The notes: generated from the letters alone by a model not told the origin. A stretch of DNA of 64,000 bases from Thermoplasmatota archaeon (GCA_041659985.1 JBAZXE010000003.1:1977-65976); one strand, 5' to 3'; positions 5,180 to 64,000 are shown, counted from the stretch's first letter. Translations and numbers: made by a program.

Positions 5180-5836
5180 TCAATCTTCTTCGTCGTCCGG
5201 TTTGCCGCGCCGGCCATCCTTGCGGAAGACCTTGGGTCGCGCGGTGACCGGCTCGTCGTCCACCGCTTCGTCGCCCTCGACGAGGTAGGCCATCTGGGCC
5301 TGCACCACTTCGGCGGACGTCTCGCATTTGGCGTAGTCTTCCAGCGGGTTCTTGTTGAGGGAGAGGAACAATTCGCCGAACGGGAGCACCGAGAGGACGT
5401 CGCGCGCCTGGCGGGCCTCGCCGACGATGAAGAGAGCGGCCCCGATGGCCTCCGCCGTCGAGAGCACGAAGGGCTTGCCATAGTTGATGGGATTCGCGGC
5501 CACCAAGAAGGGCAGCGCACGGCTGCGCGTCGAGCCGAGGAGAATAGGGAACGCCTCCTCCGCCTGCGCCCACGAGCAGTCCAGCGCCAGAAGGCCATTC
5601 TTGCGCATGTCTTGCGCATCCTCGCGGCTGAGGGCTTTCTTGGCGAAGGGGTTGAGCAGGACCGAGTGCTTGGGCGCCTTCTTGACGTCGTCGAAGAGGA
5701 TGGCTTTGCCGTGCTTGGCCAGGCGCAGAGCCGTGTTCTTCTTCGGGTCGTCCTGCGCGGCGTGGTAGATGTGGACTCCGATGGTGCCGCCAATCTTGGC
5801 GGGTCGCGGCGGTCCGCGGGGACGGCGGCCGCTCAA
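5180..5836 (-). CDS. tsr3: Tsr3-like 16S rRNA aminocarboxypropyltransferase (DUF367)
   Basis: The last ~198 aa of track ORF 5180..7183 carry Tsr3-like blocks (HIYHAAQDDPKKNTALRLAKHG, LALDCSW, ANPINYGKPFVLSTAEA). There is no in-frame ATG/GTG between the conserved N-terminus and the upstream gene. The TTG at 5836 overlaps the upstream stop (ATTGA), so the start is uncertain. Confidence 0.65.
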   Translation of the reverse strand: MSGRRPRGPPRPAKIGGTIGVHIYHAAQDDPKKNTALRLAKHGKAILFDDVKKAPKHSVLLNPFAKKALSREDAQDMRKNGLLALDCSWAQAEEAFPILLGSTRSRALPFLVAANPINYGKPFVLSTAEAIGAALFIVGEARQARDVLSVLPFGELFLSLNKNPLEDYAKCETSAEVVQAQMAYLVEGDEAVDDEPVTARPKVFRKDGRRGKPDDEED

Positions 5837-7200
5837 TGAGCACCTCCCGGCGGACCAACCACGGATTGCACGGAGCCCGCGGATCCTTTGGATCCGTGCT
5901 CTTCGTGGGTTCCGTGGTTCGTTCCGGCGCGAAGCCCAGCCGCGCGGGCGGAGCGTTCCGGCGGGTCGCCGCGCAAGAGCACCTTGAGGAACAAGGCGAC
6001 CAACCTCGGTTCGGCCCACAATAGCGGCAAGACGAGGCGACTTGGATAGTCGATGTCGCCGAGGCGTTCGATGACAGCCTTTGCCCGCGGCTTGGACAGA
6101 AGCCGGGCGAGGCGGTTGAAGTCGGCGTCGGTGAAGCGCTTGTAGAGCCCGCGCAGCAGAGTCCCTTTGCGCAGTTCGCGGGCGATGGTGCGCTTGACCT
6201 TGCGTTCGTAGGGCAGGAGGTCGCCGCGGCTGAGGCCGTCGCTGCGCAGTCCGCGGTCCGCCACCACGGCCAGGTGTTCGCTTCCCACGAGCCCCATGTA
6301 GATGCCGCCGCCTGACGTCGGCTTGGCCATGCCGGCCGCGTCGCCAACCAGCATGACGCGGTCGTCCACGAGGCGCGAGCGCAGGCCGAGTGGGATGCCG
6401 CCGATGATGAGGTAGCTCGGTTTCGCGCCCGTCAAGTACGGCGCAGAATGCTTGTCGGTGAACATGCGTTCGTAGTAGGCGCGCGCCGACTGTTCGTTCA
6501 TGCCGGGCGCCACGGCCAACCCGGTGCGGGTGCGGTCGCCGCCCACCGGAATGATCCAGGAAAAGAAGCCCGGAGCCTGCGCCGCGCCGCTGAACATCGG
6601 GATGACATGCGTCCGGCCCTCGGGGATGTGGCAGCCGGACAGTTCGGCCTCGTACGCAGAGACGATTTCGTCCACGGGCGGGAAGTCGAACCAGCGCGCG
6701 ACGCCGCCGCGGATGCCGTCGGCGCCAACGAGGAGGCGGACCCGCACCGTGGAGCGCAGGCCGAGGCGCTGCAGGGTGACGGTCACGCCGCCCGGGTCGC
6801 GTTCGGCGGCCACGGCCTTGGTGGCCACGCGCAGCTCGACGCCGGCGCGCACGGCGAACTCGGCGCAGCGCACATCGAAGCGGGCGCGGTCCATGGCCTG
6901 CGCCTGCACCTGCTTGGAGACGAACTCGACCGTCGTGCCGTCGGGGGCGACGATGAGGCCGCCGCGCAAGTCGTTCTGGTGCAGGTCGCCGATGGGAAAC
7001 GGCGTGTGGTCGAAGGTGCGCGGCGTCACCAGGCCGGCGCACTGCACCGGCTGGCCGACTTCGGGGTGCTCCTCGACAAGCAGGACCTTCCAGCCGTGGA
7101 GGGCCAACAGCCGGGCCGTGTTGGACCCCGTGGGGCCGGCGCCGACCACCAGCACGTCGTAGTCGGGTCCCTGCACGCGCCATCCAGGGCCATCCGGCAT
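5833..7200 (-). CDS. FAD-dependent geranylgeranyl reductase family protein (archaeal lipid saturase-like)
   Basis: ATG 7200 inside track ORF 5833..7737. Dinucleotide motif DVLVVGAGPTGS, then CAGLV, LLVGADG and LVGDAAGMAKPTSGGGI blocks typical of GGR. The last ~30 aa (GTNHGTHEEHGSKGSAGSVQSVVGPPGGAH) are encoded by repeat element E1. Confidence 0.75.
   Translation of the reverse strand: MPDGPGWRVQGPDYDVLVVGAGPTGSNTARLLALHGWKVLLVEEHPEVGQPVQCAGLVTPRTFDHTPFPIGDLHQNDLRGGLIVAPDGTTVEFVSKQVQAQAMDRARFDVRCAEFAVRAGVELRVATKAVAAERDPGGVTVTLQRLGLRSTVRVRLLVGADGIRGGVARWFDFPPVDEIVSAYEAELSGCHIPEGRTHVIPMFSGAAQAPGFFSWIIPVGGDRTRTGLAVAPGMNEQSARAYYERMFTDKHSAPYLTGAKPSYLIIGGIPLGLRSRLVDDRVMLVGDAAGMAKPTSGGGIYMGLVGSEHLAVVADRGLRSDGLSRGDLLPYERKVKRTIARELRKGTLLRGLYKRFTDADFNRLARLLSKPRAKAVIERLGDIDYPSRLVLPLLWAEPRLVALFLKVLLRGDPPERSARAAGLRAGTNHGTHEEHGSKGSAGSVQSVVGPPGGAH
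5853..5921. repeat. Palindromic repeat element copy E1 (AACCACGGATT ... TCCGTGGTTCG)
   Basis: AACCACGGA (5857-5865) pairs with TCCGTGGTT (5911-5919). Nested pairs GCACGGA/TCCGTGC and GGATCC/GGATCC. Termini are shared with the copies at 22492 and 22910 and, degenerate, at 54508. Confidence 0.7.
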
Positions 7201-7279
7201 TTCAACATGAGCGGATGGGCGGCCGGGCCTTGGGTGGTCTCCGCTCGCTTCTTGACCTGGTGCCGCCTTGGCCGCCTTG

Positions 7280-7744
7280 ATGGCGCTCGGCCAGACCCAA
7301 CTCCTCACGGTGGCCGGCGTGCTGGCCATCCTGTTCGCGGTCATCGTGTACAACAACGTGGCCGCCATGCGCTCCCGCATCAAGGCCCGCCAAGCCACCA
7401 AGGGATCCGCCTCCTCCCATGAGGGCCCGGTCCACCCGCTCTTGGTCAAGTTCGCCCGCCACGAGGGCTCCGTGGTCGGCGAGACCGTGGCCATCGACGG
7501 CGAGCGCCTCATCCTCAAGCAGGCCGGCTCCTTCAAGGCGGTCCCCATCAGCCAAGCCGAGGTCAAGGGCGACGACGTCGTGCTCACCGGTCTCATCGAC
7601 TGGGCCATCGCGGCACAGGCTGGAACCGCCTGGCACGAATCGACCCGCAAGGCGGACGCCGGCGTCAGCGGGGAACTCACCAAGAGTTCCGACGTGAAGT
7701 CGCCCGCGATGGACGCCGTGCGCTCCCGCGACGGCAAGAACTAG
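7280..7744 (+). CDS. Single-pass membrane protein, unknown function
   Basis: Track ORF 7268..7744 (TTG 7268, ATG 7280). One N-terminal TM (LLTVAGVLAILFAVIVY) followed by a soluble domain. Coding-like GC3 bias. No family recognised. Confidence 0.5.
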   Translation: MALGQTQLLTVAGVLAILFAVIVYNNVAAMRSRIKARQATKGSASSHEGPVHPLLVKFARHEGSVVGETVAIDGERLILKQAGSFKAVPISQAEVKGDDVVLTGLIDWAIAAQAGTAWHESTRKADAGVSGELTKSSDVKSPAMDAVRSRDGKN

Positions 7745-23218: not shown

Positions 23219-23638
23219 CTAACGCGCCCTAGCGACGGCGACCGCGACGTCCGGTTTCTGCTTGTTGAACGCGGCCATGACTTCGTCGGTCTCCCGCTTG
23301 GGGATCTTGAAGTGGGCGAGTGTGCGCGCGAGCTCGGCCGCGACCTCGTCGAATTCCTGGGCGGTGATGTTGAGGTCCTTGTGGGCGTTGCCCAGGGGCT
23401 TGCCGGCGCCTTCGTACTTGAATGGCCCGCCGCTTACCGAGCAGACCCAAAGCGTCCGCATGAATTTCAGGCCCGGCATGCGCGCCGCCGTCTGGTTTGT
23501 GCTCCACTCGCGGAGCGCCGAGTTCTTGGACTTCTTGCCGACCAGGGGATTTGCCAAGACGTTGTCGCTGAAATGGTCCACAACAGCCGCGATGGCGAAG
23601 GCGCCACCCAACCGTTCGTACAGAGATTTTTCTGGCAT
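23219..23638 (-). CDS. glbN: Truncated (2-on-2) haemoglobin, group I-like
   Basis: 139 aa. SLYERLGGAFAIAAVVDHFSDNVLANP and LGNAHKDLNITAQEFDEVAAEL align by eye to trHbN A/B helices and the proximal-His F-helix region. Confidence 0.7.
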   Translation of the reverse strand: MPEKSLYERLGGAFAIAAVVDHFSDNVLANPLVGKKSKNSALREWSTNQTAARMPGLKFMRTLWVCSVSGGPFKYEGAGKPLGNAHKDLNITAQEFDEVAAELARTLAHFKIPKRETDEVMAAFNKQKPDVAVAVARAR

Positions 23639-46257: not shown

Positions 46258-47427
46258 CTAGAGCCGACGACGGCGACGGCGCTCCTCGATGATGAGAGCC
46301 CGCTCGCGACCAATCTGGCCGCGGATGGAGGTGTTTTCCTCCGCGCGGCGCGTGAGATAGGGAACGACGGCGCGGACTGGGCCGTAGGGGACGTACTTGC
46401 AGACGTTGTAGCCCTCGGCCGCGAGGTTGTAGGAAAGGTGGTCGCTCATCCCGAGGAGCTGCGAGAAGTACAGCCGCGGGTCGTCGCGGCGGAGTCCGCG
46501 CTTCTCCATGAGTTCGGTCAGCAGGAGGGTCGACGTCTCGTTGTGCGTGCCTGCGACAAGCGCAATCCGGTCGAGGTGCTCGACCGAGAAGACCAGCGCC
46601 GCGTCGTACGCTGCGTCACTGGCGGCCTTGTCCGGCAGGATGCAGGAGTCCGCCCCCGCCGCCGCGGCTCGGGCGCGCTCCTTTTCCATGTAGGCGCCCC
46701 GCACGAGTTTCAATCCGAGCAGGTATCGGCCCTCCGTCGCGCGCCGGTGGCTTTCGCGCAGGAAGTCGAGGCGGCCTCGGCGGTAGAGTTGGATCGTGTT
46801 GAAGACGATGGCCGTCTCGGTGTTGAACCGGGCCATCATGGTGGTCGCAACATCGTCGATGGCGCCCTGGATCCACGACTCTTCGGCGTCGATGAAGAGA
46901 CGCACGTTCTTCGCGTGCGCGTGCGCGCAGACGCGCTCGACGCGGCTCTTGGCGCGCGCCCATTCATCGTTCTCGCGTGCATCGAGCGCCTGCCCGGCGT
47001 CGACCTTCTCGAGCAGGGCGAAGCGGGCGACACCCGTCATCTTGAACACGCAGAACGGGATGGCCGGGTTCCTTGCGGCCAGGTCGATGGTGCGCTCGAT
47101 CTCGTCCGTCGTCCGGTCGAACTCCGCTTCGTCCTCGTGCCCCTCGTCCGCGATGTCAAGGATGGTCCCGACGCGGAAGCGCCACAACGTCTCGATGGTG
47201 GGGGCGCACTCGGCGATCGTCTCGCCGCCGCAGAATTGGCGAAAGATTGTGCGTTTGACGAGCCACACCACTGGGAGGTGGAGGGTGAGCGCGACGCGCA
47301 GGAGCCACGTGCCGGTCCGGACGGCCCAAGGGTGGGCAAACGCCCGAAACATCCAGTCGGCCCGCCGTAGCGCGACATCGCTCTTTGAACGGAACGCGAC
47401 CTCGGTGTTGGCGAAGCTCAGCGCCAT
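46258..47427 (-). CDS. putA: Proline dehydrogenase
   Basis: 389 aa. FIDAEESW, VFNTIQLYRR, GLKLVRGAYM, AGTHNE, QLLGMSD and YVPYGP...YL.RR..EN blocks of the PRODH TIM barrel. Confidence 0.8.
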   Translation of the reverse strand: MALSFANTEVAFRSKSDVALRRADWMFRAFAHPWAVRTGTWLLRVALTLHLPVVWLVKRTIFRQFCGGETIAECAPTIETLWRFRVGTILDIADEGHEDEAEFDRTTDEIERTIDLAARNPAIPFCVFKMTGVARFALLEKVDAGQALDARENDEWARAKSRVERVCAHAHAKNVRLFIDAEESWIQGAIDDVATTMMARFNTETAIVFNTIQLYRRGRLDFLRESHRRATEGRYLLGLKLVRGAYMEKERARAAAAGADSCILPDKAASDAAYDAALVFSVEHLDRIALVAGTHNETSTLLLTELMEKRGLRRDDPRLYFSQLLGMSDHLSYNLAAEGYNVCKYVPYGPVRAVVPYLTRRAEENTSIRGQIGRERALIIEERRRRRRL

Positions 47428-57929: not shown

Positions 57930-59513
57930 GTGTGGCCCTGGGTGCGCGTGGTCAGGGCAGCCTCAGCCGTCGTCATGGTCGCCCTCGCGGCCGCCGTCCT
58001 TGCATTCTTGCCGTCGGCCTCGGCGCAAGCACATGAGCACGGCGTCGTAAACACCCAGATCGCCATCGCCCACGACGTCCCCGCCGATGGCCGCACCTTC
58101 GTCGGGAACGTCAACCACTTCTCGGTCATCGCGCACGGCGACGACTCTGTGCCCGACTTCCATCAGAACATCCCGTGGCGCGTCACGCTCAACGGGCTCA
58201 CTTTGGTTGAGACGACGGCCACCAGCGGACACGACTACGACGGCGTCAACACCTTCGACATCGTCTTCCCGGTCGCCGGAGCCTACACGGTCGAAGCGCT
58301 CGATGCGGAAGGCAAGGTCGCCGCGATGTTCGTGGGCACCGTGGAGCCCGCCTCGACCCGTACCGCCGCCATCAAGTTCGACGCCCCCAGCGACCCGGTC
58401 CTCGCCGGTCAACCGGCGCGCTTCACCTACTCCGTTTCCGACGCCACGCAAGGCGCCAGCGACCTGCCCATCGCGCATAGCGACTGCACCTTCGAGGTCC
58501 TGAGCCAAGGCCGCACGCAGTTCCGCGCCAAGAGCCACACCCACGAAGACCGGCAGCAAGTCCAGTACGCATTCGCTGAAGCCGGTTCCTCGACGGTTCG
58601 CGTCACGTGCTTCCAAGCCTTCCCCTCCGCGCGGGCCACGCTCTTCGTGCCGGTGGTGTTTGAACAAGATCTCATGGTGCTGCCGGGACCGCCCGCGAAC
58701 ACGGCCTCGTCGATGCCGGAGCCAACCGTTCCATCCTCCGACCTGAACGCCGTCGTCACCGCACCGGCCGGCGAAGGCATGACCTTGGTCGGGACCTTTG
58801 ACCCGTACACCGTGGTCGGCCCAGACACCCTGCAGCATCTCAACGTCTTGGCCGTCGACGCGACGGGACAGACCATCCAGCACGTCGATTTCACGGCGAC
58901 CCTCGACGGCCCCGCCGGCCTTGTGTTCCGCTCGGAAACCCTGCATGAGTACGATGGCATCCTCGAGTTCACGACGCGCCAGGCAACGCCGGGGTTCTAC
59001 ACCCTGCGCGTCACCGCCGAAGGCGCCTCCGGCTCCGGCGAACTCACCATGACCTATCTCGTCGCCCCGCGCGCCGTGCCGCTCAACGCGGGCCTGGTCG
59101 CCGTCACGCTCGACGTGCCCGGCATCGTTTCCGGCATCCCGGCCGAATGGAGGCTCGCCGCGGGGGCCACGAGCGGCCCCTTCGCGCACGGCGAACTCGA
59201 AGTCCGCCTCACCGCGGCGGGGCAGACCGTCCCCTACCTGCAGGCCAAGCTGCACACGCACGCCGACGGCGCGTTCCCCTTCACGGTGGCGTTGCCGACG
59301 GCGGACGCCTACACGCTCGACGTCATGCCGTTCCCGCTCATGCCGGAGCTGGTGCTGCCGGCGGCGACGTCGTTCACGGTGCAGCCGGCCGAGGGCGCGG
59401 CCCTTCCAGTGGCGGCCCTCCCCGACGCCAGCCAGGATGCGCCCGCCTTCGCCCCGGCCCTCCTGTTGGTTGGCTTGGCTGGCATGGCCCTTGCGGTGCG
59501 GCGCCGGGCCTAA
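57930..59513 (+). CDS. Cell-surface protein with ~4 Ig-like (YtkA/FixH-like) repeats and PGF-CTERM-like anchor
   Basis: Signal peptide ends ...PSASAQA. The mature N-terminus HEHG is His-rich. There are four ~120-aa beta-domains, several ending in the pattern H.H.DG..F.F.....G.Y.L.V. The C-terminus is PAFAPALLLVGLAGMALAVRRRA. Confidence 0.55.
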   Translation: MWPWVRVVRAASAVVMVALAAAVLAFLPSASAQAHEHGVVNTQIAIAHDVPADGRTFVGNVNHFSVIAHGDDSVPDFHQNIPWRVTLNGLTLVETTATSGHDYDGVNTFDIVFPVAGAYTVEALDAEGKVAAMFVGTVEPASTRTAAIKFDAPSDPVLAGQPARFTYSVSDATQGASDLPIAHSDCTFEVLSQGRTQFRAKSHTHEDRQQVQYAFAEAGSSTVRVTCFQAFPSARATLFVPVVFEQDLMVLPGPPANTASSMPEPTVPSSDLNAVVTAPAGEGMTLVGTFDPYTVVGPDTLQHLNVLAVDATGQTIQHVDFTATLDGPAGLVFRSETLHEYDGILEFTTRQATPGFYTLRVTAEGASGSGELTMTYLVAPRAVPLNAGLVAVTLDVPGIVSGIPAEWRLAAGATSGPFAHGELEVRLTAAGQTVPYLQAKLHTHADGAFPFTVALPTADAYTLDVMPFPLMPELVLPAATSFTVQPAEGAALPVAALPDASQDAPAFAPALLLVGLAGMALAVRRRA

Positions 59514-60616: not shown

Positions 60617-60630
60617 ACCCCTTCGCCGAT

Positions 60631-60660
60631 TCCTTTTCCCTTCTCCTCCCCTTCGTTTTT
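60631..60660 (+). terminator. Pyrimidine/oligo-T tract after the ribosomal cluster
   Basis: TCCTTTTCCCTTCTCCTCCCCTTCGTTTTT, ending in T5, lies 15-45 nt after the L24e stop. Oligo-T is the usual archaeal termination signal. Confidence 0.4.
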
Positions 60661-60804
60661 CGCTCGCCGTTCAAGCCAGGCGGCAGCGTCATCGCGCCAC
60701 GGGCCAATTCACGGTCGCCGGCGAGTTGCATTTCCATTGCAACGGTTCGATAAATGGGATACGAACAACACGCCTTGTAGTGGGGACGAGGGTCTCGCAG
60801 GCCG

Positions 60805-61938
60805 ATGCGCATTGGTGCCATCCTTACCCTTCTCCTGTTGACCCTGGCGGGTTTGGCCGTCTCCCCTCTGGCAACCGCCGCTCCTGCTGCGCCCGCTTGC
60901 AATGGCATCGCCCATCTCCGCAAGGAAGTGGGTCCCCTCACGGTCGACGTGACCCCCGGGATGTGCTACGAAGTGAGCGTCAACGAGGACTGCGGAGGCG
61001 CCCCCTCCGCAACGCAGCATGCCGGCCCGGTCACCGTGCGAATCTGGGAATGTTCGGCTGCGGCCCAATCGATGGCCCCGCCGTGCACCTGCCCACCGCC
61101 GCCGCGCTGCACCCCAATGGACACGACGGGCGCCATCACGCTCGTCGTCATGATCCAGCTCCAGAGCGACTGCGACGTCTACCTCGTCCTGCTCGCCGGT
61201 GCTCCCTGCACGGAGGGGCCGATTGCGTCCCAGGGCCGTGTGCACGTCTATGGGCCGCGCAAGTGCACGCTGCCGCCGCTGCCGCAGCCTTGCCAGCCGC
61301 CGTACTTCGCCTGCGTGCCCTACCCGATTGGGACCTCCAGCGCCGTCCTCATCCCGCCGGTCTGCATCGAGAGGACGGTCGAGCAGGCCCCGGTCCGCGC
61401 CGGATTCTCCACGTGCTACGACGAGTTCGTCGAGGTCGACCTGTGCCCGGCCGCCAACCCGGCGGTCGACGTGCATGAGGATCTCGGACCAGCCTACGTC
61501 GACGTCGAGCAATGCCTCAGTTCGCAATGCTCCAAGCTCGACCCGGCGACTCCGTTTGTCGACGTGTCGCCCTCCTGTCAGATTCTCGTCTCCGTCGACG
61601 TGATTGACTGCCTGTGGGGCGAGACCTGGGTCACCTACACCGTAGGCCCGGTCACCGTTCGCTACACGACCTGCAGCGGCCCCTACGAAACGATGTCGGC
61701 CGCGCCGCCGTGCACCTGCCCACCACCCCAGCCGTTGTGCTACCAGGTCAATCGGGCCATCGCCTGGAACCAGTACTACAGCGTCGACGACTACTGCAAC
61801 GTCACCATCAACCTCGAAGCCTACTGCGGATTGCAGGGCACCGAGGACCACACCCAGAAGGCCGGCAAGGTCACGGTGAACTACCAAACCTGCCAGCCGC
61901 CTCCCCTGCAAGGCGCCGACCCCACGGCTTGGAGCTGA
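60805..61938 (+). CDS. Secreted Cys/Pro-rich repeat protein A (26 Cys)
   Basis: Signal peptide MRIGAILTLLLLTLAGLAVSPLATAAP. Repeated 4-Cys modules and PPCTCPPP linkers. Internal DNA duplications at 61024/61645 and 61078/61705. Confidence 0.65.
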   Translation: MRIGAILTLLLLTLAGLAVSPLATAAPAAPACNGIAHLRKEVGPLTVDVTPGMCYEVSVNEDCGGAPSATQHAGPVTVRIWECSAAAQSMAPPCTCPPPPRCTPMDTTGAITLVVMIQLQSDCDVYLVLLAGAPCTEGPIASQGRVHVYGPRKCTLPPLPQPCQPPYFACVPYPIGTSSAVLIPPVCIERTVEQAPVRAGFSTCYDEFVEVDLCPAANPAVDVHEDLGPAYVDVEQCLSSQCSKLDPATPFVDVSPSCQILVSVDVIDCLWGETWVTYTVGPVTVRYTTCSGPYETMSAAPPCTCPPPQPLCYQVNRAIAWNQYYSVDDYCNVTINLEAYCGLQGTEDHTQKAGKVTVNYQTCQPPPLQGADPTAWS

Positions 61939-61942
61939 CCGC

Positions 61943-63529
61943 ATGAAACTCCCCACCCTTCTGACCCTTGGTCTCCTGTTGGCGGCAGCATTCGTCGCCC
62001 TTCCATCCGCACAGGCCGCACCGCCCGGTCCCCAATGCGTCCTTCCGTGCGATGGGCCGATTCCCGACCCCGAAGAGGTGCCGACCTGCAAACCGGTCGA
62101 CCGCTACGACAACGGCGGGACCCTCCACACACGGGTCGACGCCGACTGCCACATCCGCATCGACAACAAGCCGTACGACTGCGTCTGGAACTGCGGCTGG
62201 CACACCGTCGTCGACACGCCCTACCTGACGATTCGCACGTACGGACAGAACAGTGGGGAACCGGCGTCCGCCTCAGCAGCCCCGCCGCCCGGCATCCAGC
62301 CGCCCCCGCAGTGCGTGACCTCGCCCTGCTGCTTCGCGCCATGCCCACCCCCGTGCTACGACACGGGATGCCCGCCTCCGGTGGCCTGTCGCGACGCCGA
62401 GGCTCGCACCAGCGACCTCCTGGCCTACATGGGCCCGCAAGCCGGCGCCGTGCTGCACCGCGACTGCACCCTTGACCTCTACGAGGATGACGTCATCTGC
62501 CCCTCCGGATGGGAGAAGACCGAGGACAACCGGCGCAGCGTGGGTGGCCGCGTCGACGTGTCGTACGACAGTTGCGAGGAACGCCTCGACTGCACGTGCG
62601 ACCCCCTGCCCATCGAGTTCACTTCGGCCAACGCCGCCGCCATTGAGCCGCCCATCACCATCAAGGTCGTGGATTGCGTCCAGGCCCCCTGTCCGCCCAT
62701 CGTGCGCTGTTCGCCCCGCGAGGTCGATGGCGCCTACCTCTTCGGCGCGTACGTCGAGAGCGACTGCGACGCCACAATCGGCCTCATTGATGCCTACCGG
62801 CTCTGCCCACCCGGGCTCGACCACCAGCAGGTGCGCCGCACCCAGGAAACACCGGCCAACGACGCCACCGTCGTCGTCAACTACTGCGCACCCGGTTTGG
62901 ATTGCGCCTGCGATCCAATCCTGCAAGAGCAATCCGCTTCGGCCATTGAGCCGCCCGTGGGCATCGAATTCGTGCAGTGCACAACGGCGCCTTGTCCGCC
63001 ACAAGTCTGGTGCAACGTCCACGGCCACGCCGCCGTGTTCCAGTACGACATGACCCGTTCCTGCGGCCACGTGACCCTCACCCAGGACCCGCTTCCCTGC
63101 GAGGGAACCCGGCACGAGACCACCACGCAGGGTCCGCTGACGGTCCGCCGGTCGTACTGCGGCCCGGGGATCGACCCGTCGGCGGCCTCCATGCAGCCGC
63201 CGATCGTCTGCGTGATGGCCCCGTGCGGCCCGCAGTGCATCGTCCCATGCGTCCCGCAAGTCGTGCCGACGGATTGCGAGCTGCGCGAAGCGACGCCGCA
63301 GACGGTTGGGCCGCTTGCCATTCCGGCCAACCCTCGAACGTTGGTCTGGGGCAGCAGCACGTCGGACTGCACCATCGACGTCGAACCCGTCTACGACTGC
63401 GTCGGTGGCTGGGGTTTCGACCGTCACGTGACAGCCGCGTTCATCGACGTGACGGCGCGGGTGTGCACCGGCGGTCCGTTCCCGCCGGCCCTGGTGCAAG
63501 TCATCCTGGACGCCTTGGCGCTCGAATAG
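61943..63529 (+). CDS. Secreted Cys/Pro-rich repeat protein B (40 Cys)
   Basis: Signal peptide MKLPTLLTLGLLLAAAFVALPSAQA. Five 4-Cys modules joined by (A/S)-rich and APCPP..C linkers. Starts 4 nt after protein A. Confidence 0.65.
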   Translation: MKLPTLLTLGLLLAAAFVALPSAQAAPPGPQCVLPCDGPIPDPEEVPTCKPVDRYDNGGTLHTRVDADCHIRIDNKPYDCVWNCGWHTVVDTPYLTIRTYGQNSGEPASASAAPPPGIQPPPQCVTSPCCFAPCPPPCYDTGCPPPVACRDAEARTSDLLAYMGPQAGAVLHRDCTLDLYEDDVICPSGWEKTEDNRRSVGGRVDVSYDSCEERLDCTCDPLPIEFTSANAAAIEPPITIKVVDCVQAPCPPIVRCSPREVDGAYLFGAYVESDCDATIGLIDAYRLCPPGLDHQQVRRTQETPANDATVVVNYCAPGLDCACDPILQEQSASAIEPPVGIEFVQCTTAPCPPQVWCNVHGHAAVFQYDMTRSCGHVTLTQDPLPCEGTRHETTTQGPLTVRRSYCGPGIDPSAASMQPPIVCVMAPCGPQCIVPCVPQVVPTDCELREATPQTVGPLAIPANPRTLVWGSSTSDCTIDVEPVYDCVGGWGFDRHVTAAFIDVTARVCTGGPFPPALVQVILDALALE

Positions 63530-63637
63530 GACGCTCGACCCGGCCTCTCCCTTCTTCCCGACCTCGTTTGGGCGAACCGGTGGCCTTCGACGCTGCACCC
63601 AAGGAGCTTGAATACTAAGAGCGGGGCGTCTCTCCCC

Positions 63638-64000
63638 ATGCGCCCCATGCTGGCCATGCTCTTGCTGGCCCTGCTTGCCGCCTCCCTCTCGGGATGCGCC
63701 TCCAACGACCCCGCCGCCCTGCCTGCCGACGAACCGTCCGAGGGATTCCAAAACGACCTCTTTGCCGGTGAGGCGGACGCAGGGACCCCGGCGGGAGACG
63801 CGGGCTCGCATGGCACCCCGCAGCGCGAGGACGGCCCTGTTGAAACCGGCTCCGAGGCGCCCCTCCAGTTCCCCGGGTCCTACGCCCGCCGCACCATCAC
63901 CATCAGCAACGACTTCGGCGGCGCCTCCCTCGGCACCCTCTTCGCCGGCGTCGAATCGGGCACCATCACGGTCGTGCCCGGTGAAGGCGAGGACTCCACA
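63638..64000 (+). CDS. Lipoprotein, 3'-truncated by window edge
   Basis: ATG 63638. MRPMLAMLLLALLAASLSGC lipobox. I translated the frame by hand to nt 64000 and found no stop (absent from the ORF track because it is open-ended). Confidence 0.6.
   Translation, partial: MRPMLAMLLLALLAASLSGCASNDPAALPADEPSEGFQNDLFAGEADAGTPAGDAGSHGTPQREDGPVETGSEAPLQFPGSYARRTITISNDFGGASLGTLFAGVESGTITVVPGEGEDST

Follow-up and report, generated by a model that had tools for sequence, protein, structure and literature searches.

What kind of protein is made by a tandem pair of archaeal genes whose products are rich in cysteine and proline and resemble no named domain? The pair lies towards the end of a 64,000-nucleotide (nt) stretch of DNA from a Thermoplasmatota archaeon (GCA_041659985.1, JBAZXE010000003.1:1977-65976), referred to here as the window. 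Open reading frame 1 (ORF1; 60805–61938, + strand) encodes a protein of 377 amino acids (aa) that contains 26 Cys and 46 Pro and ends in PTAWS, and ORF2 (61943–63529, + strand) encodes a protein of 528 aa that contains 40 Cys and 68 Pro and ends in LDALALE. Both proteins were found to be strings of a repeated four-Cys module that constitutes a new domain family, a previously undescribed all-beta unit used in a design known from eukaryotic proteins of the CCP type. An earlier note on this DNA had given the coordinates, the 4-nt spacing of the genes (ORF1 stop TGA at 61936–61938, ORF2 ATG at 61943) and the aa and Cys counts, all of which proved exact in the ORF listing.

ORF1 and ORF2 are genuine + strand genes. 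The minus strand also carries two long open frames (60709–62091 and 62273–63811; 460 and 512 aa), and the Cys-rich frames would be artefactual if these antisense ORFs were the true genes, a case that the earlier note had raised against itself. However, the guanine-plus-cytosine (GC) contents at the three codon positions, 0.62/0.53/0.84 in ORF1 and 0.66/0.54/0.84 in ORF2, are similar to those of the neighboring L7Ae gene (0.65/0.45/0.88), and third-position values of genuine genes in the window lie between 0.84 and 0.88, whereas those of the antisense ORFs are 0.62 and 0.67. The antisense products contain 15% Arg and 16% Gly, a composition that shadow frames in high-GC DNA typically show. Dozens of homologues, in which the signal peptides are conserved and the Cys invariant, were found for the + strand products, and NCBI and JGI alike call the + strand genes. 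The antisense candidates were rejected on codon statistics, homology and annotation as shadow frames of a 67% GC genome, and the probability that they are the real genes is close to nil. NCBI proteins identical to ORF1 (WC876_01225 / MFA5943066.1) and ORF2 (WC876_01230 / MFA5943067.1) are labeled 'hypothetical protein' in a metagenome-assembled genome of a Candidatus Thermoplasmatota archaeon. The start of ORF1 differs between the two annotations, being 60805 in NCBI (377 aa) and 61117 in JGI (Met105, 273 aa); the latter would leave the protein without its signal peptide and module 1. In favor of the 377-aa start, 24 homologues of ORF1 open with this signal peptide and then APPxPxCNG. With Cys contents of 6.9–7.6%, ORF1 and ORF2 are extreme outliers, since the remaining callable proteins of the window contain 0–8 Cys each. 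A Shine-Dalgarno-like GGAG (61931–61934, + strand), read from the sequence within the end of ORF1, lies 9–12 nt 5' of the ORF2 ATG and, together with the 4-nt gap, suggests that the two genes are co-transcribed.

What is the repeated unit? The module comprises approximately 55–65 aa and follows the pattern C1-x(16-30)-[D/S]C2-x-V-x-V-x(6-8)-C3-x(20-23)-C4, in which the last spacer contains GPVTV. Four different ORF2 segments served as seeds for hidden Markov models (HMMs), which were iterated over the family proteins and all converged on one core. The HMM built from the enlarged set recognized 354 module copies in 112 proteins, with the consensus V-x4-D-C-x-V-D-V-x6-C-x2-G-...-V-G-P-V-T-V-x4-C-x-P-P. 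Among the 301 canonical copies, C1 and C2 are 16–30 residues apart, C2 and C3 mostly 10–12 and C3 and C4 mostly 20–23, and exactly four Cys were counted in 278. The four Cys were the sole invariant columns in a MAFFT alignment of 140 diverse copies, whose identity to the ORF2 copy was 13–42%. The repetition seen in the earlier note was thus real, but its literal pattern was too narrow, fitting a single ORF2 module and none of those in ORF1; with a relaxed four-Cys pattern, 8 matches were obtained in ORF1 and 9 in ORF2, against 0.8 and 1.5 in residue shuffles. HMM iteration is a sounder proof of repetition than such pattern matching.

Each protein contains five modules, all encoded on the + strand. 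In ORF1, module 1 (60898–61053; C32, C54, C63, C83) is matched by the HMM with canonical Cys spacing, and module 2 (61108–61266; C102, C123, C135, C154) is also matched, its C4 having been assigned by hand to C154, which leaves C163 and C170 as a two-Cys linker. Module 3 (61363–61515; C187, C204, C214, C237; spacing 17/10/23) is of the IPPVCIER type. It was itself unmatched by the HMM, whereas the homologous segments of P0022 and P0038 were matched (P0002–P0085 denote family proteins, and L001–L009 related loci). This segment, residues 187–237, was missing from the inventory in the earlier note, so that the count rises to five per protein; all of the module and linker peptides quoted there are present. 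Modules 4 (61528–61674; C242, C258, C269, C290) and 5 (61738–61893; C312, C331, C341, C363) complete ORF1, both with HMM matches, at E-values of 7e-15 to 3e-15 in the case of module 4. In ORF2, module 1 (62087–62248) is a variant with an HMM match that contains C49, C69 and C80, lacks C4 and has an additional C84 in a CVWNC motif. It is followed by module 2 (62387–62575; C149, C175, C186, C211), which was the one modelled, and by modules 3 (62708–62887; C256, C275, C288, C315), 4 (63011–63160; C357, C374, C386, C406) and 5 (63275–63466; C445, C476, C486, C508), the last three with HMM matches. Module 5, of the CVGGWG type, is the best conserved among homologues.

The Cys outside the modules, 6 in ORF1 and 20 in ORF2, all lie in linkers as CxC, CxxxC or CxxxxC pairs, and across the family the Pro-rich linkers bear CxC, CC, CxxxC and CxxxxC pairs; residues 124–143 of ORF2 form a linker with six Cys. 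A PPCTCPP linker with a CxC pair occurs twice in the translation of ORF1 (61078–61097 and 61705–61724, + strand), encoded each time by the identical 20-mer CCGCCGTGCACCTGCCCACC, and GPVTV is encoded by the 14-mer GGCCCGGTCACCGT at both 61024 and 61645. These are the two most conserved peptide motifs. The earlier note had taken the identical words, which do stand at these positions, as a sign of internal DNA duplication. A recent duplication was rejected because the identity between modules is low, at about 15–42%, which suggests instead that the words reflect conserved motifs together with codon bias or local conversion. In addition, Ala/Ser-rich, AxA-like stretches separate the ORF2 modules, for example at 63182–63250 (SAASMQPPIVCVMAPCGPQC), and the sequence after such stretches is that of the mature N-terminus of other members; P0004 and P0007 begin with AAQPPIYCVMAPCGPE after their signal peptides. 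This arrangement would fit either 'cap+module' cassettes that are shuffled whole or proteins that are cut to single units after export.

How is the module expected to fold? For ORF2 residues 147–214 with the 140-row module alignment, AlphaFold2 (AF2) gave a model with a predicted local distance difference test score (pLDDT) of 93.2 and a predicted template modelling score (pTM) of 0.73. The model contains five strands (residues 6–9, 20–25, 31–36, 44–52 and 58–67) and one short helix (12–17). In the model of full-length ORF2, computed with 20 homologues (mean pLDDT 58, pTM 0.28), the modules were again beta-rich, with pLDDT values of 63–86 (83–86 for module 1, 63–74 for module 3), and the linkers were unconfident. 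By the HMM copies and the AF2 model, the module is a genuine, repeated and independently folding unit. No match to it was found by Foldseek in PDB (best E 2.3, template modelling score 0.32) or among the viral models of BFVD (best E 0.3), and the full-length model returned only noise (OB-fold and HIN matches at E ≥ 0.087). Neither protein had a match in Pfam-A or NCBIfam at E ≤ 1, nothing meaningful was found by Pfam in ten divergent family members, and against PDB sequences the best E-values were 3.1 with phmmer (ORF2) and 1.2 with the module profile. These searches bear out the earlier note, which could assign the module to no named domain. The lack of a known relative is a result, and a new fold is hypothesized from the comparison of the model with PDB and BFVD structures.

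The known domain most similar in design may be Sushi/CCP/SCR (PF00084) of complement regulators, which is likewise extracellular, all-beta and approximately 60 aa in length, contains four invariant Cys that form two disulfides and is arranged as strings of a variable number of beads on short linkers. However, Pfam detects no such match in ORF1 or ORF2 at E ≤ 1, and Foldseek found no match of the module model to CCP structures in PDB. The Cys spacing also differs, the conserved Trp of Sushi contrasts with the DCxVxV and GPVTV of the archaeal module, and Sushi pairs its Cys as C1–C3/C2–C4, whereas C1–C2/C3–C4 is suggested by the archaeal sequences; the host, moreover, is an archaeon. The likeness is one of design, not of family.

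Both products carry features of export. The predicted signal peptides span residues 1–25 in ORF1 (60805–60879, + strand), with cleavage expected after A-T-A as read from the sequence, and residues 1–25 in ORF2 (61943–62017, + strand), with predicted cleavage after A-Q-A; the latter is helical in the AF2 model and conserved in alignment A1. As judged by pattern, an n-h-c signal peptide with an AxA site is present in 109 of the 114 family proteins, including these two. No hydrophobic run of at least 15 residues was found within the last 35 residues of any of the 114 proteins, which excludes a C-terminal transmembrane or PGF-CTERM-type anchor, and no lipobox is present in ORF1 or ORF2, whose signal peptides end in AxA followed by A-P-P, with the first Cys seven residues past the predicted cleavage site. 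Lipoprotein or PGF-CTERM anchoring was rejected on these grounds, and the cleavable-looking signal peptides and free C-termini that the earlier note had described are borne out in both proteins. By these sequence features, ORF1 and ORF2 are Sec-exported, unanchored proteins. The mature proteins are acidic (pI about 4.4) and contain zero or one N-glycosylation sequon. A Sec signal peptide, an acidic pI, beta-rich repeats and an extracellular location are shared with archaeal S-layer and surface glycoproteins. S-layer proteins, however, are typically very poor in Cys and anchored by a C-terminal transmembrane segment, PGF-CTERM or lipid, unlike ORF1 and ORF2 with 7–8% Cys, no anchor and hardly any sequons.

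The C-termini show two further features. ORF2 ends in an amphipathic helix, ...PPALVQVILDALAL (63488–63523, + strand; AF2 helix at 516–527), which is not a membrane anchor and is conserved in P0002, P0003, P0006, P0008 and P0010–12; the GG..LGD-type tail of the ORF2 C-terminus is also found between modules of divergent members. The last two residues are Trp-[Ser/Gly/Gln/Thr] in 32 of the 114 family proteins, including ORF1 (61924–61938). This ending comes after differing kinds of last module and is much too frequent to be due to chance, given a Trp content of about 1%; it resembles a motif for recognition or sorting at the C-terminus.

How are the Cys residues used? An even number of Cys was counted in the mature part of 107 of the 109 family proteins with signal peptides, and the two odd ones are visibly truncated. 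When modules and linkers were defined by HMM, 136 of the 139 linkers of at most 45 aa between recognized modules contained 0, 2, 4 or 6 Cys, and the three odd linkers are boundary mis-assignments of the PCGPTAYCTGPEC cap. An attempt to count parity per segment by cutting at Ala/Ser-rich runs was dropped, as the cuts fell inside modules and gave a meaningless 147:128 split. Natural variants point to specific partners. The module type LPVEVHVV...HVDVYVKADVMDC...VWVWGC lacks both C1 and C2 in P0024, P0025, P0027, P0029, P0031 and P0036, and its counterpart in P0023 retains all four Cys. Half-modules with C1 and C2 only occur in P0007 (136–182), P0018 (180–207), P0019 (221–252) and P0009 (130–160), and in the CVWNC type, which includes ORF2 module 1, C4 is gone and an extra Cys stands four residues past C3. 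Since the paired losses, the C1/C2-only half-modules and the CVWNC variant all fit, C1–C2 and C3–C4 are the suggested partners. A C2–C3 bond is unlikely because a six-residue strand lies between the two, and C3 and C4 appear in the model to flank the base of the last hairpin. Mean-field direct coupling analysis of the 301 modules, aimed at strand neighbors, was dominated by gap and subfamily artefacts and was discarded. The simplest reading of these sequences is that every Cys takes part in a short-range intrachain disulfide, namely C1–C2 and C3–C4 in the modules and linker pairs that include unusual CxC and CC rings. The 'disulfide-locked extracellular beads on Pro-rich stalks' of the earlier note are consistent with the parity, the even linkers and the paired Cys losses, and as a structural proposal they continue to be inferred.

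Would the same Cys instead be kept reduced as ligands for thiophilic metals such as Cu(I), Zn, Cd or Hg? The proteins would then be extracellular metal sponges or metallochaperones, with one two-coordinate site per two-Cys motif (CxC, CC, CxxxC) and one or two sites per module. Some linkers are indeed very dense in Cys, for example QCVTSPCCFAPCPPPCYDTGCPPPVAC in ORF2, 76 CxC and 39 CC motifs were counted in 48 proteins, and in CCS and metallothioneins CxC is known to bind Cu(I). Even Cys numbers would fit sites of two or four thiolates equally well. In addition, the syntenic block encodes a secreted Ig-like protein with faint YtkA matches and a predicted mature N-terminus of HEHG, and one gene of the block bears the label PF03860 (Csp, copper storage protein) in L002 and L003. 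However, C1/C2 and C3/C4, 16–30 and 20–23 residues apart in a well-predicted beta fold, have the separation typical of structural disulfides, CxxC accounts for only 10 of approximately 1400 Cys–Cys gaps, and His (1.3–1.9%) and Met (0.9–1.6%) are scarce. Cys pairs are lost while the module persists. Known thiolate clusters do not keep to even Cys numbers, mammalian metallothionein domains containing 9 and 11 Cys and Csp1 13. The ribosomal-protein operon separates the Csp and YtkA genes from the Cys-rich genes, and the Csp match was not reproduced by hmmscan. Metallothioneins and Csp (PF03860) thus share with the family a high Cys content, CxC and CC, and the Csp-annotated gene in the syntenic block of two related genomes, but metallothioneins are devoid of regular secondary structure and the fold of Csp is a four-helix bundle, unlike archaeal modules that are beta with widely spaced Cys pairs, near absence of CxxC and even Cys numbers; ORF1 and ORF2 have no Pfam match to Csp. 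Metal binding, which the earlier note had offered as its alternative, was weakened by these points and is retained as an unlikely rival. A multihaem c-type cytochrome was rejected because no CxxCH haem motif was found in the 48 family proteins.

How widespread and how variable is the family? A word-indexed homologue search yielded 19 relatives for ORF2 and 23 for ORF1, all unnamed and without Pfam domains, and a HMMER profile run against 1.84 billion cluster representatives recovered 87 clusters at E ≤ 1e-3 and 22 at E ≤ 1e-30. The members range from a 92-aa secreted protein with a single module (L009:2003–2281) to a many-module protein of 810 aa. The contigs bearing them have GC contents of 61–74%, and the contig name of one source sample starts with 'soil'. 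A pattern derived from the alignment gave 32 matches in the GTDB genome collection, none of them a true relative, and nothing relevant was found in the literature on secreted or envelope proteins rich in Cys from Thermoplasmatota or other archaea. The family is small and apparently confined to one lineage of high-GC Thermoplasmatota. Between the window and L004, the flanking genes are 63–64% identical, whereas the alignment of ORF2 with its L004 counterpart covers 74% of the query at 42% identity, and the two differ in module order; by this comparison, the Cys-rich genes diverge faster than their flanking genes.

The genes sit in a conserved order of L7Ae, S28e and L24e, a pyrimidine-rich spacer, the Cys-rich genes, a DUF4097/Toastrack lipoprotein gene and RNase H. 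This order was observed in the window, L001–L004, L006 and L007, with RNase H seen in L001–L004 and L006 (the window ends earlier). The number of Cys-rich genes per locus is one in L006, two in the window, L001, L004 and L007, three in L003 and four in L002, and the additional array genes all encode signal-peptide proteins with even Cys numbers. The most divergent members, in L005, L008 and L009, are not beside L24e or a Toastrack gene and adjoin further small module proteins. In L005, 3' of the gene for the most divergent member, the 810-aa P0083, an AhpC/TSA-Redoxin gene was noted (L005:2757–3305) whose product contains a CxxC (FICNHCPYV), has no obvious signal peptide and is possibly a cytoplasmic thiol peroxidase or reductase.

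Could the paralogues of one locus be cross-linked to each other? The linker Cys would then form intermolecular disulfides, joining ORF1, ORF2 and paralogues into a Cys-rich shell that would serve this wall-less archaeon as its main envelope layer, in functional analogy to the outer-membrane complex of chlamydial OmcA and OmcB. In Chlamydia, these proteins are thought to stiffen a peptidoglycan-poor envelope through disulfide cross-links. The archaeal genes are always co-oriented, tightly spaced paralogues, one to four per locus, adjoining highly expressed ribosomal-protein genes and having a conserved promoter-like box of their own; neither ORF1 nor ORF2 has its own anchor, and linkers such as APPCTCPPPPRC and CPPPC are like the CPPCP hinge of immunoglobulins. 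The resemblance to the IgG hinge and to keratin-associated proteins lies in polyproline stretches with close Cys (CTCPPPP, CPPPC, CC), but there is no sequence homology, and every archaeal linker is even in Cys, which indicates intrachain pairs. A symmetric interchain hinge needs no such parity, yet the only odd linkers were the three mis-assigned ones. Furthermore, L006 has a single gene, the divergent P0083 and P0085 have Cys-free linkers, and the full-length AF2 model shows no confident packing between modules. The analogy to OmcA and OmcB extends to Cys-rich exported proteins encoded side by side, and not to homology (none in Pfam or NCBIfam): OmcA is a lipoprotein and OmcB is built from DUF11 repeats, whereas the archaeal proteins are unanchored and an envelope role for them is hypothetical. 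Such a cross-linked shell is considered improbable.

The fast module shuffling and the changes in copy number are typical of arms-race genes and raise the question of whether the proteins are not envelope components at all, but released effectors such as multi-headed protease inhibitors, toxins, antimicrobials or viral decoys. Small disulfide-rich secreted modules are usually inhibitors, toxins or antimicrobials in other organisms, and the missing anchor and the span from about 92 aa with a single module to 810 aa with many would suit this role. However, no similarity to any inhibitor or toxin family was detected with Pfam or Foldseek, the conserved neighborhood contains no immunity, transporter or processing gene, and the conserved positions are structural (Cys, GPVTV, xVxV), with no conserved loop resembling a reactive site. 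A role as effectors is accordingly held to be very doubtful.

In the explanation that best accommodates these data, ORF1 and ORF2 would be co-transcribed, Sec-exported and unanchored acidic proteins, each with five beta modules on Pro-rich linkers. After export, each Cys would enter a short-range intrachain disulfide, C1–C2 and C3–C4 in the modules and one pair of its own for each two-Cys linker motif, producing rigid beads resistant to proteases and denaturation on stiff polyproline stalks. The proteins would then serve a structural, surface-coat or adhesive purpose in the extracellular space, a step less supported than the disulfides, and their module repertoire would be quickly reshuffled because of exposure to viruses, grazers or varying substrates. 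Such a role outside the cell, with the Cys in intrachain disulfides, is, from the sequences, somewhat probable. Some ORFs of the window, namely a truncated bacterial-type globin (23219–23638, minus strand), a proline dehydrogenase (46258–47427, minus strand) and an FAD-dependent monooxygenase-like protein (5833–7737, minus strand), together with the 'soil'-named sample of a homologue, weakly suggest an oxic habitat; with these weak signs of oxygen use, oxidized extracellular Cys are plausible.

Several points weigh against this explanation. The proposed pairing is drawn from parity and natural variants, and metal sites of two or four thiolates would give equal parity. Disulfides within CxC or CC are strained and rare, yet the parity argument needs them, for example in the last super-module of ORF1, where C303 and C305 have no other free partner. 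No disulfide-forming enzyme was seen in the conserved neighborhood. The proteins have no anchor or known surface-attachment motif, so that 'surface coat' may be wrong and they may simply be released. Finally, the loci with conserved context all come from closely related genomes; the neighborhood therefore says little on function, and the Toastrack linkage may be plain synteny.

What surrounds the two genes? A promoter-like element, TTCGATAAATGGGATACGAACAACACG (60746–60772, + strand), lies 33–59 nt 5' of the ORF1 ATG and consists of a TATA-like box followed by an invariant CACAACACG. When the spacers between L24e and the first Cys-rich gene were aligned for the window and L001–L004, TCGA.A, GG and ACAACACG were invariant and GATAA was present in four of the five; the conserved element reads TTCGATAAnTGGG...CACAACACG. 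The AT-rich box that the earlier note had ascribed to the pair, GATAAATG, occurs once, at 60749, and its conservation in related genomes upholds that assignment. The element is probably an independent promoter of the Cys-rich genes, to judge from the spacer alignment. Right after the L24e stop, at 60617–60662, a pyrimidine-rich tract with a T5 run was observed, whose character is conserved in L001–L004; it looks like a terminator of the ribosomal-protein operon.

Downstream, the lipoprotein gene mentioned in the earlier note is present as its 5' part (63638–64000, + strand; lipobox LSGC), cut by the window end, and MRPML at 63638 is a more likely start than 63608. Its product is 63% identical over 119 aa to L004:11256–12518, which carries PF13349, and is thus an orthologue of the DUF4097/Toastrack protein; such a gene lies 3' of the Cys-rich genes in each of the seven related loci that were examined. 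A connection between Toastrack domains and envelope-stress systems has been described (bioRxiv 10.1101/2020.09.24.301986), which is a weak hint to function.

Upstream, a conserved gene at 57930–59513 (+ strand) encodes a 527-aa secreted, Ig-like protein with weak PKD, Filamin and Big_1 matches and a C-terminal hydrophobic segment that ends in RRRA; its orthologues have faint YtkA matches. Its predicted mature N-terminus, His-Glu-His-Gly, is suited to a histidine-brace Cu site. Beside this gene in the related genomes, L002:3818–4270 and L003:5197–5640 encode proteins of 147–150 aa with 7–8 Cys recorded as PF03860 (Csp); for the L002 gene, the label was not reproduced by hmmscan at E ≤ 0.1 (the L003 gene was outside the scan). 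A copper theme in the syntenic block is possible, and the Csp link is a weak hint.

What does the pair mean for these archaea? Extracellular disulfide-rich 'beads-on-a-string' proteins are common in eukaryotes and hardly known in archaea, whose surface proteins are as a rule nearly free of Cys. The family is not a new kind of biological system. It is a new domain family of approximately 350 module copies in approximately 110 proteins, and its fold is confidently predicted and has no structural neighbor in PDB or BFVD. The disulfide map inferred for it is testable, and the genes make up a hypervariable tandem array in a lineage of uncultured Thermoplasmatota. The small, very stable-looking module and its rigid Pro-rich linkers may also be of interest to protein engineers. 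If the proteins are minor secreted products, they would still make up a well-delimited new DUF-type family. If they are abundant on the cell, the picture of how the envelope is built and decorated in these archaea would be revised, and an efficient extracytoplasmic oxidative folding system would be implied for the lineage. It is a long shot that the new extracellular fold forms, with the Toastrack lipoprotein, a disulfide-stapled and possibly cross-linked coat that replaces or supplements an S-layer in a soil and groundwater lineage of Thermoplasmatota; in such a coat, the strained CxC and CC disulfides of the polyproline linkers would be latches that respond to redox state or force. If true, this would be a principle of archaeal envelope construction not described before.

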